Below are positions 89 to 64,000 of a stretch of 64,000 nt of DNA, in pieces (position 1 is the stretch's first letter; each line of letters opens with the position of its first letter). This DNA comes from Euglena gracilis. Lineage: Eukaryota. The DNA lies in the NCBI GenBank assembly GCA_039621445.1, contig CP154954.1, positions 7,628,634 through 7,692,633 on the forward strand, written 5' to 3'. The notes under the pieces were generated by a model, which worked only from the letters and a program-made list of their open reading frames with translations, was not told the DNA's origin and did no database searches. A program made the position numbers and the translations under genes.

Positions 89-3000
89 CTGAGGGGGTCA
101 AGTCGGGAGGTGTGGCGGTGCTGCGTTGCGCTGAGTGGGTTTGGCGCCCTCGAACAGTTGAGAAACATTGCCCCCAAAACGGCTCGGCAACACAAGGGAC
201 TTGGTCATTTTATGGCCCGCGAACAGTTGAGAAACACGGAGGTTTGCCCCTCAATATGCCTTTGGCAGCAGACAAGACCTTGGGAGTGCAAAAAAAAAAG
301 GAACACCCCTTGGGCTATGGTGTGTGGAAATCTGAAACTATGTCCATATCTATGTCTATATACCACAACAACAGGAAAACTGTGGATTTGTGGATGCACA
401 AGGAAATGGAGTCAAGATCGAAAAGTTGGAAAATATTTTGAAAAAAAATAATATAATACCTGCAAACATATTGAAGAGTGTCAATAACGATTACCTTTCA
501 TGGTATCTGTCACTTTGAAACCTTGATTTCAATCCGACAAGAGACTGATAAGAAAAAAATGATAAATGAAAAAAAATGAAGTGGGCCGGGAAAATTTTGG
601 CTTTCTGGACCGGCAAAGGGCCAGATACCAGGCCAAACTGTTGAAGAATCTGCAATTTATCTTTGAAAATAAATCCCAAAAAATACTTTTTATATGAAAA
701 ACACCAAAAGATCAAAAAAAAGTGTGCAATATGTTCAAAACTGAGGCAAAGGGGCATTTTTTGTTCATTTTCCAGCGCCAGAAAAAAAAATTCGCTGTTA
801 TTGGAGCCTGCCAAGGAGGGCTGTCTGGACACCTCCTCCCAACATCTGGTCCCGATCCCCCCCACCACCTACCTTCCCATCTATCCCTGGGGTCTGCAAT
901 TGTTCTTTGCCGATGCCCTGTACCACTCATATGTGAAAGAAACGGTGGCCAAAAGATAGAAAAACAAATACAGCAAGAGCAACTGGCAAGTTTGGTGAGG
1001 TACCTTTTCCTTCTCTACAATCGACCCACATTATCAATGAAAAAAAACTACCCAAAAAAATGGGTAAAAAAAACCAAAAAATAAATGAAATTCACCGTGG
1101 GTGGCACGACTAACGCAGGAATTATCAATTTGGGGTTAGCCTCTGAATGCGCAAAGGTGCAGCATAAAATAGTTCAACGAACGCGCGACGTGGGGCGGGT
1201 GCCAGGTGGGAGGACAGGGCCACAAAAGAGAGACCCCCAGCCTCATAGAACTCCAAAAGGGGGGAAAGGGGGAGAAAGGGGGATGCCTGCAATGCCTTTC
1301 CTTCAACACTTGGACCCTCCCCCAAAAGTTTCGGGGGTCAAATTCAGATCACGTTGCATGTTTCAACATTCAGATCGTCAGGGGGAGGACGATCACAAAG
1401 ACTAAATCCCTCCAAACAAAAACGTGCATCACACATTATTCACTTGCAAAAAGGGTATCACGCTGTCGGTGGCATTGCACCGTCGGCGCCACGGCCGGCA
1501 CACCTTGAAGAACTGGTCGAAGGTGTACGCCGCGGCCTCCTGGATCTCCTCCTCCTCGTCGCAGATGGCCTGCAGGATGGCCTGCACCAGCGCCTCCGCG
1601 TGCGCCTGCAGCTGCATGCGGTTCGCCGCGTGGATCACCTCCGAGAGCCCCAGCGGCAGGCAGGGGCGCTCCCTTTGTGGGGGTGGGGCATGGGGATGGG
1701 GAGCAGGCTTGTGCTCATCGACCGGGGGGGGAGGGGGATAGGGTGCCTGCCCCTAGCAGGCACACGAGGGGGGGGGTCCAGGGGGCGGGGGACCCAGAAA
1801 ATTTTCATTGAAAATGGCCTTTTCCGGGCCCCCGGTCAGGCTTCTTTTTAAGACCCCCGGGGGGGGAGGGGGGGGGTCCCCCCCACCCACCCAGGTGGCG
1901 CGGGACCCCCCCCGGGGGGGGGGGGGGGGGGGGGTGGGGACCCCCCCAAAATCGGGCCCGTAAAAGGCAATTTTCAAAAATTTTCGGCGCTTCGCGCCGA
2001 AAAGGTATACCCAGCGCCTCCGGCGCGGGACCCCCCCCCCGGGGGGGGGGGGGGGGGGACCCAGCGCCTCCGGGGCGGCACCCCCCCCCCCGGGGGGGGG
2101 GGGTCCGGCCCGGACCCACCCACCCACCCCCCCCTCCCCCGGGGGGGGGGGGGGGGTCTGCTGACTTAAAAAGAAGCCTGCCCCCGGTGCCTTCGGCGCC
2201 AGGGTCGGAGGGGGGTGCCTGATATGGCAGGCACCCCCAAAAACCCGACCCCCCCAGGGGGGGTCGGATCGGTGCTATGGGGTGCCTGCCCCTAGCACCC
2301 CCCCCCCCGTGGGATAGGCACCCGACTAAGCACAAGCCTGATGGGGACGCAAGCGGCGGCCTTTCCTCGCATATGTGTGGGGGTGTGCGTGGAGTGGGTG
2401 GGGTTTCGGGGTTTCCGAGCTCCGCCCCCCTCAACCCTGCCCCACGTGTCAGCCAATTGGGGGCAGGGGAACAACGAGAGACTCCCGGCAACACCCGTTC
2501 TCCCACTGCCCGTTCCTTGGTGAGCCCGGGCAATGAATTTTTGCCCTGGTTTCCTTTTTAACGTCCCCTCTCGCCATAGTTCTCTGCCGGGAGCCTTTTT
2601 ATCGCTGTGAAAGAGACAGCACACAAAATTCTCAGTACCGCAGTCCCCAAACCTGTCCAGGGCACCGGTCGTGACTGCCTTTCGAACAAGCCAGGGGGTG
2701 GGGGGGGGGACCCACGCCCCTAGGGGGCTATGCGGGAACGTGGGGGGCCCCGGCCTGCGCAGCGCCACGCCGTGCCGCACGTCCACCTCCTCGCTCTCCA
2801 GCTGGGCGTGCAGCTGCGGGATGAGCGTCGGCAGCACGGAGTCGCCCAGCTTGCCCACCATCTCCCCGAGGGCCCGGCCTGCCGCCTGGGGCAAAGGAGG
2901 GAGTGGGGAAAGGACGAAGGGGGGGAAAGGGGAAAGGGAGGGGGGACATGCACCCCAAACAAAATCCGCACCCCCCCAGACCTTGACACGCCAAAATATG

Positions 3001-64000: not shown

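Follow-up and report, generated by a model that had tools for sequence, protein, structure and literature searches.

Where do the nonconventional (NC) introns of euglenids come from, and what removes them? Both questions are raised by a 64,000-nucleotide (nt) stretch of Euglena gracilis DNA (GenBank assembly GCA_039621445.1, contig CP154954.1, positions 7,628,634 to 7,692,633 of the forward strand; hereafter the window), along which a GCN1 gene rich in such introns runs on the minus strand. At this locus we observe splice junctions, helices formed by the intron ends, the anatomy of resident MITEs (miniature inverted-repeat transposable elements) and a similarity of intron flanks that lies above chance. 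On these grounds we favor, with a probability of about 0.55, the view that the NC introns descend from elements with terminal inverted repeats (TIRs) and 8-bp target-site duplications (TSDs), and that a cut placed 3 nt upstream of the helix and 5 nt downstream of it (the 3+5 register) restores the message.

The GCN1 gene and its junctions

The window consists of eukaryotic DNA (G+C 46-57%), and coding-potential segments mark a long series of short coding stretches on its minus strand. By tblastn the GCN1-like exons follow in order residues 1009-1874 of P0071 (2475 residues, taken from the transcriptome of a diplonemid), and the queries P0132 and P0025 are also collinear; P0155, a Diplonema papillatum relative of P0071 with 84% identity to it across residues 1545-1650, bears the name eIF-2-alpha kinase activator GCN1. 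The gene occupies positions 1 to 64000, is truncated by both window ends and comprises about 32 exons and 31 introns. A GCN1 protein of the same species, sought for fixing the junctions, was not found, the matches being diplonemid proteins only. Transcript evidence covers the stretch 37000-50100, onto which three RNA runs (two of raw reads, one of contigs) and a DNA contig run were mapped; the raw RNA reads covered the exons, and the joints quoted from this mapping are among the 15 listed out of 342.

RNA reads or contigs fixed 12 joints and, in addition, two joints given by loose ends that were placed exactly at 51061 and 4391. Seven of the listed joints are conventional, with plus-strand borders CT..AC or CT..GC, that is, GT/GC-AG on the gene strand. 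Five are of another kind: 49146>49620 (TT..GA), 47539>48149 (CG..GG), 47026>47471 (AG..GT), 46548>46933 (TT..GA) and 39622>40161 (GG..GC). The loose end at 51061 corresponds to a GC-AG intron at 49693-51060 after sliding by 4, and the one at 4391 closes an intron of 33,819 nt. Three further NC introns were obtained from RNA contig pieces and one loose end. This brings the supported NC introns to 11, eight by RNA and three (N1, N6 and N11) by exact residue spacing against homologues; no back-joint at an NC intron, as a full-length circular RNA excised after the conventional introns would give, is among the 15 joints listed of 342. The GCN1 gene is euglenid-type, its introns being about half conventional and half NC.

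Splice geometry and intron flanks

The published splicing code for NC introns has the form 5'-N3-CDG-/-CH'G-N5-6|R; knock-in experiments published in PNAS in 2025 tested its spacers of 3 nt and 5 nt, and on the 3' side a length of 5-6 nt is tolerated (PMC12501133). Nine of the 11 supported introns are compatible with the 3+5 register, seven of them convincingly. In N2 and N4, where RNA fixes a junction that does not slide, the helix lies exactly 3 nt in from the 5' border and exactly 5 nt in from the 3' border. N2 (49147..49619, like all NC introns on the minus strand) reads GCC-CAGAGCC...GGCTCTG-CTGCC|A with a helix of 7 bp, and its joint 49146>49620 is carried by three X24 reads and one X18 contig ('both' = 0); N4 (47027..47470) reads ACC-CAGGGC...GCCCTG-AACCT|G with a helix of 6 bp, and its joint 47026>47471 is carried by three X21 reads, three X24 reads and one X18 contig ('both' = 0). 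Across introns, the two ends behave as inverted repeats, being complementary at 9.4 of 12 positions as against 4.9 of 12 for ends taken from different introns.

Helices of at least 6 bp at the 3+5 register occur in N1, N2, N4, N5, N7 and N9, the six pairs of N9 including one G-U. N1 (56833..57229) reads GGG-CAGGCCCC...GGGGCCTG-CGGCC|A, with an 8-bp helix; its junction is placed by the residue spacing, which agrees exactly with P0071 and P0132. N5 (46549..46932) reads GCC-CCGGGGGT...ACCCCCGG-CCCCC|G after sliding by 1; its joint 46548>46933 is given by one X18 contig and one X24 read, and its 8-bp helix has a rival of 10 bp at a=3, b=0. N7 (43994..44665), GCC-GGCAGCGG...CCGCTGCC-CGCCC|A with an 8-bp helix, and N8 (43562..43929), GCC-CGG...CCG-CCGCC|G after sliding by 1, are both defined by a single 64-nt exon, since record 1 of X18 has 64 letters left over between the stretches 44666-44772 and 43391-43561 and only an exon at 43930-43993 keeps the frame. 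The same record holds 130 letters between 40996 and 38353, for which only a 66+64 split keeps the frame; this gives N9 (39629..40162), GAT-CAGGGC...GCTCTG-ACGAG|G, with flanks ACGAGGAT/ACGAGGAA. N11 (1652..2760) reads GCG-CAGGC...GCCTG-CCGCT|G, and its GVAL|GLSEV spacing agrees with P0071. The helices of N9 (CAGGGC/GCTCTG) and N11 (CAGGC/GCCTG) are each extended by one additional outer pair, in N11 a G-C. N3 (47540..48148), AAT-CGGG...CCCG-GCGTC|A after sliding by 2, is joined at 47539>48149 by six X21 reads and one X18 contig ('both' = 2); like N8, it has only 4-5 bp of helix at this register.

The two remaining introns depart from the register. N6 (45658..46414), GTC-CAGG...CCTG-ACCCCC|G, whose joint is not among the 15 listed, is read as 3+6, the only register in which the frame is kept and the homologues' DAPAL|AIIYPIL spacing is preserved. 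N10 (4421..38239) is the giant intron of 33,819 nt; its loose end at 38240, seen in seven X21 reads and one X18 contig, is an exact match to 4391-4420, its junction slides by 7, and its ends carry the direct repeat CATcATTGGGG/CATgATTGGGG. According to the original prediction, 14 of 15 NC introns were cut at 3+5 and one had a 3' spacer of 6 nt. The exception is recovered as N6; the count of 14 is too high by at least one, because N10 has no terminal helix at this register.

The letters at +4..+6 and -8..-6 are CAG/CTG in N1, N2, N4, N6, N9 and N11, CGG/CCG in N3 and N8, CCG/CGG in N5 and GGC/GCC in N7, with none in N10. A purine opens the downstream exon in 9/9 of the supported 3+5 introns, and in N6 as well (G). 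The set resembles the introns of PMC12501133 in its non-GT/GC-AG borders, its helix from +4 to -6, its downstream purine (9/9), its one 6-nt spacer and, in part, its CAG/CTG or CGG/CCG letters (8/11); it differs from that code in the helix letters of N5 and N7 and in the 33.8-kb intron, which is helix-free at the register.

If the two spacers together correspond to a TSD, the 8 nt before the helix should resemble the 8 nt after it, and these were compared with the same flanks re-paired among introns as the control. In the nine supported 3+5 introns the flanks agree at 35/72 positions (4, 2, 4, 2, 2, 4, 4, 7 and 6 of 8 for N1, N2, N3, N4, N5, N7, N8, N9 and N11) as against 25.6 +/- 3.9 when re-paired (P=0.015). 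The giant intron enters the count through its junction repeat (7/8), and together with the seven introns fixed by RNA only it yields 32/64 versus 21.3 +/- 4.4 (P=0.017). For the nine introns, identity is 0.49 at a flank length of 8 and 0.22-0.42 at the other lengths from 3 to 14; at length 2 it is 0.50, from 18 positions. The original prediction expected, genome-wide, a peak at 8 when flank identity is followed by length, and such a peak is present for the introns of this window at lengths of at least 3.

The original prediction also counted 62/112 matching flank positions over 14 introns. Our rebuild of that set gives 60/112 versus 38.2 +/- 4.7, a value reached by 0 of 100,000 shuffles, and an identity of 0.54 at length 8 as against 0.21-0.39 at the other lengths from 4 to 12. 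This set includes four predicted N-terminal introns (63949->63411, 61696->61173, 60257->58699 and 58558->57880), which we treat as tentative because many alternative junctions exist above 57.4 kb. The 13 kb of the N-terminal part contain 15,034 helices of at least 7 bp at the 3+5 register, and with thousands of helices and many in-frame alternatives a helix alone is unable to place an intron. The candidate N0 (63411..63949), GGG-CAGGCTGCC..., was taken from a match at 63416-63946 in a blind scan for TIRs and TSDs; it fits the end coordinate 63949 proposed earlier, has flanks matching at 5/8 and bears at one end CAGGCTTC, as in the TIRs of the Y and X elements described below. The candidate N13 (57880..58558), GGG-CAGGG...CCCTG-GTGCT|G with flanks at 7/8, is the best code-compatible in-frame choice. 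The figure of 60/112 overstates the case, since these four introns were chosen with the pattern in view. Taken together, the TSD-like signal in the flanks is real but modest, and it rests on few introns (N9, N11 and N10).

Resident MITEs and the descent of the introns

Self-comparison and TIR scans of the window identify nine MITE copies in four families: three of X (TIR CAGGCTTGTGC...), four of Y (CAGGCTTCTTTTTAAGAC), one of W (CAGGGGTTTTTTTAAG) and one of Z (CAGGGCGGCGTTTAAG). They start with CAGG (CATG or CAGA in two copies) and end with CCTG, their TIR arms match at 13-16 of 16 positions, and their 8-bp TSDs are identical at 66 of 72 positions. The copies, given without strand, are X1 (1704..2340; TSD ATGGGGAG/ATGGGGAC), interrupted by Y1 (1837..2180; TSD CCCCCGGT, 8/8), which is inserted into it; X2 (24885..25186; GCTTGAAT, 8/8); X3 (38558..38863; GTCCCCCC, 8/8); W1 (25629..25894; GTTCAGTG, 8/8); Y2 (44314..44561; GTTGGGAA, 8/8); Z1 (19876..20192; 7/8); and Y3 (55671..56029) and Y4 (58704..58919), both at 6/8. 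The Y TIR is matched 10 times versus 0.06 expected, and in blind scans that allowed up to 1-2 mismatches, flank repeats turn up at 8 nt and scarcely at 9-11 nt. The MITEs are high-copy, since DNA word depth over them (e.g. Y2) far exceeds that of unique bins, depth not being the same as copy number. The earlier claim that the locus harbors MITEs with CAG(G)/(C)CTG TIRs and 8-bp TSDs is thus confirmed.

Introns and MITEs meet at their ends. The NC introns mostly begin with CAGG, like the local MITEs, and a blind scan for CAG...CTG elements with TIRs of at least 10/12 and 8-nt flank repeats returns, besides the MITEs, N11 (1657-2757, TIR 10/12), N7 (44001-44660) and the tentative N0. Conversely, five of the nine MITE copies taken with their TSDs match the complete published splicing code on the transcript strand. 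We accordingly propose, as a model, that the NC introns derive from TIR elements like the local CAGG...CCTG MITEs. Once such an element has entered an exon, base pairing between its TIRs in the pre-mRNA would draw the two TSD copies close to each other, and the NC machinery would cut in the 3+5 register, removing the element and exactly one 8-nt TSD. Because element and one TSD would leave together, the message would be restored in either orientation and the insertion tolerated. The enzyme's geometry may have fitted the transposon, or it may just have selected those transposons that were able to settle in exons.

Several observations weigh against this descent. No supported NC intron (0/11) can be aligned over its whole length with a further copy elsewhere in the window, and the resemblance is limited to the ends (CAGG, and CAGGCTTC in the tentative N0) and to nested copies, Y2 lying within N7 and X1, with Y1 inside it, within N11. 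The seven RNA-only introns taken by themselves give 25/56 versus 19.7 +/- 3.9 (P=0.12), three introns (N2, N4 and N5) match at only 2/8 flank positions, and the four N-terminal introns that lift the count to 60/112 were picked in knowledge of the pattern. In two of the seven conventional introns (C4 and C6), too, this register allows a helix of 4-5 bp, so that N3 and N8 carry little weight. N6 has a 3' spacer of 6 nt, the ends of N10 are complementary at just 3/12 positions of the register, and in N7, where the helix is GGC/GCC, a CAG...CTG element would take 12 nt along rather than 8. The correspondence to a TSD is not rigid either, because the published 3' spacer tolerates 5-6 nt. Finally, no transposase family was found by Pfam in 20 long open reading frames (ORFs) of the window. 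Of the earlier statement that the NC introns are domesticated TIR transposons, the TIR-like ends, the shared CAGG and the 8-nt flank peak stand, and an intron made up entirely of one MITE-family copy, as expected there, is not found among the 11 supported ones. As for presence/absence variation, no joint of DNA run X2 among the 15 listed out of 342 corresponds to a MITE or an intron, which weighs neither way.

The original prediction further assigned the elements to the hAT superfamily. Elements of this superfamily have 8-bp TSDs, TIRs starting with CAG or YARNG and a weak target preference, nTnnnnAn. The window MITEs fit in TSD length and partly in their CAG-type termini; their TIRs start with CAGGC, CAGGG, CATGC or CAGAC, of which CAGGG agrees with YARNG and CAGGC does so incompletely. 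Their TSDs have T at position 2 in 4/9 and A at position 7 in 5/9, window frequencies being 0.235 for T and 0.261 for A. The label is a reasonable guess, less likely than descent from TIR elements as such, and the 20 ORFs without a hAT transposase leave it unproven. A metagenome scan with the Y TIR found 14 loci, none with a partner TIR; as each has a single TIR, we take these to be chance matches. It is possible, if rather less than probable, that the introns did arise from transposons and that these belonged to another transposase with an 8-bp TSD, such as Merlin or a P-like one. The E. gracilis DNA transposons on record are Merlin elements, of which two families have 8-bp TSDs and keep their DDE motifs intact (PMC8101967), and no paper in our incomplete literature search links Euglena to hAT MITEs or describes Euglena MITEs with these ends. 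Against this, Merlin, with TSDs of 8-9 bp, has TIRs with a terminal 5'-GG (PMC8101967), whereas all nine window copies start with CA and end with TG.

A more basic objection, which we consider rather unlikely, is that the agreement is coincidental: the 3/5 cut would be an intrinsic ruler of the RNA enzyme, the repeats would result from another mode of intron gain such as double-strand-break repair with microhomology, and the MITEs would be passengers piling up in introns. Intron 4 of gapC in E. agilis ACOI 323, a recent gain, has a direct repeat of eight nucleotides at its junction according to a 2016 paper, in which double-strand-break repair was the favored origin (PMC4770533). Conventional introns of this gene have junctions that slide too, by 1-5 nt, and both the placement of the MITEs inside introns, which they do not compose, and the RNA-only flank test speak for the same view. 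Yet length (8) and termini (CAGG...CCTG) agree together, the identity peak falls at 8 and not at neighboring lengths, and the blind scan, which had only TIRs and flank repeats to go by, picked out two supported NC introns among the MITEs. The reverse direction, in which the MITE-like families would be NC introns turned mobile, for instance via the full-length circles in which NC introns are released (as cited in PMC11282704 and PMC12501133), is very improbable, since copies have their own perfect 8-bp flank repeats (e.g. CCCCCGGT, GTTGGGAA and GCTTGAAT), which point to a staggered DNA cut rather than to reverse splicing, and since Y1 sits inserted within X1.

Descent from TIR elements has a further, more doubtful corollary. 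Because the 3/5 stagger of the enzyme equals the 8-bp stagger of the transposase, CAGG...CCTG MITEs might be "born spliceable": new exon insertions in either orientation would carry the whole NC code, the families would be a still-active source of NC introns, and intronic copies could be excised as introns within introns, for which the predicted joints would be 44308>44565 (Y2), 55665>56033 (Y3), 1831>2184 (Y1), 38552>38867 (X3) and 25623>25898 (W1). Were the spacers to exist because they sum to the resident 8-bp TSD, this would explain the abundance of NC introns, their strain-variable positions and their sliding junctions, and it would supply a concrete element for the existing knock-in reporter.

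Transposons acting as introns have parallels elsewhere. Work on Micromonas introners reportedly describes DNA transposons making spliceosomal introns, and Giroux is said to have reported in 1994 that maize Ds, a hAT element, is spliced out as a de novo intron. The present case resembles introners in that the element and one TSD copy would leave the RNA, making exon insertion neutral, and resembles Ds in that a non-autonomous hAT-family element would act as an intron. It is unlike introners, which use the spliceosome and GT/AG-type sites, in that the NC cut is set by the helix; Ds, by contrast, reportedly relies on spliceosomal sites lying within the element or close to it, and its removal is imprecise. 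Introners, as reviewed in 2024, are DNA transposons that create spliceosomal introns, the TSD being used for a splice site (PMC11282704).

The broader idea of a transposon origin is not new, and the interpretation of 3+5 as an 8-bp TSD is a short step beyond published statements. A MITE origin of NC introns was proposed in 2014 by Milanowski, when no transposable elements were known in euglenids (PMC3935182), and the 2024 review in Mob DNA (PMC11282704) equates the stems, placed at +4..+6 and -8..-6, with TIRs and describes the repeats at the junctions as "TSD-like". These two accounts, in the portions available, hold the same idea and name no element family, TSD length or superfamily; in contrast, the gene in this window holds actual families with matching ends and 8-bp TSDs. 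The available main text of PMC12501133 gives MITE-like elements as merely a possible source and contains neither "TSD" nor "target site duplication". Our literature search, which was incomplete, found no paper stating the link between 3+5 and an 8-bp TSD or a hAT assignment for NC introns. What the window adds is a set of named MITE families that agree with the splicing code in TSD length and in their ends, together with a flank-identity peak at 8 nt, a modest but real contribution to the literature searched.

The giant intron and further observations

At 33.8 kb, against 0.25-1.6 kb for the other GCN1 introns, N10 stands apart. It ends in a direct repeat of 10/11, and a helix of 9-10 bp lies 5 nt and 11 nt in from its borders; the intron may be removed in steps. 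Its interior includes, at 5331-11284, about three tandem copies of a 1,884-bp unit with 98-99% identity, of which a diverged partial copy lies at 28261-29181, and a segmental duplication of about 3-4 kb with 84-91% identity (22863-27089 and 31888-34798).

Near the N-terminal end of the gene, the possible NC intron 58699-60257 would have as its 3' helix half the terminal repeat of Y4, with the cut 5 nt beyond the end of that element. The junction is unproven, and the exon would begin with C, a pyrimidine; if the intron is real, a MITE end is used directly as a splice signal. The four Y copies (1837, 44314, 55671 and 58704) have one orientation relative to GCN1, with the AAGAC arm at the low and the AAGTC arm at the high coordinate, an arrangement with a chance of 1 in 8. 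A tenth MITE-like element at 54759-55213 (CAGGGGGGGGAAATGC...GCATTTCCCCCCCCCTG) has at its flanks a perfect repeat of 6 nt (GTTAAG) rather than one of 8 nt.

At N9 the joint 39622>40161, which is among those listed, was rejected as the splice, as it breaks the frame and the 130 contig letters fit only 40163-40228 plus 39565-39628. Another RNA contig, with a depth of 268 and a side of 26, nevertheless joins 39622 to 40161, 4 nt off the in-frame joint, which could reflect an alternative cut, an acidic-repeat allele or an assembly slip. The neighboring GC-AG intron 40229-40995, which is supported by RNA, reads GGC-CGGGC...GCCCG-AAGGA|G when slid by 1 and is then a full match to the NC code; it is an "intermediate" intron, which might be removable by either machinery. 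N5 contains two adjacent near-perfect palindromes, at 46651-46713 (63 nt) and 46715-46781 (67 nt), each 98% self-complementary. The GC-AG intron at 49693-51060 harbors a microsatellite of about 900 bp, (GT)n with variants, at 50000-50963, within which a (GT)n array extends from 50142 to 50423.

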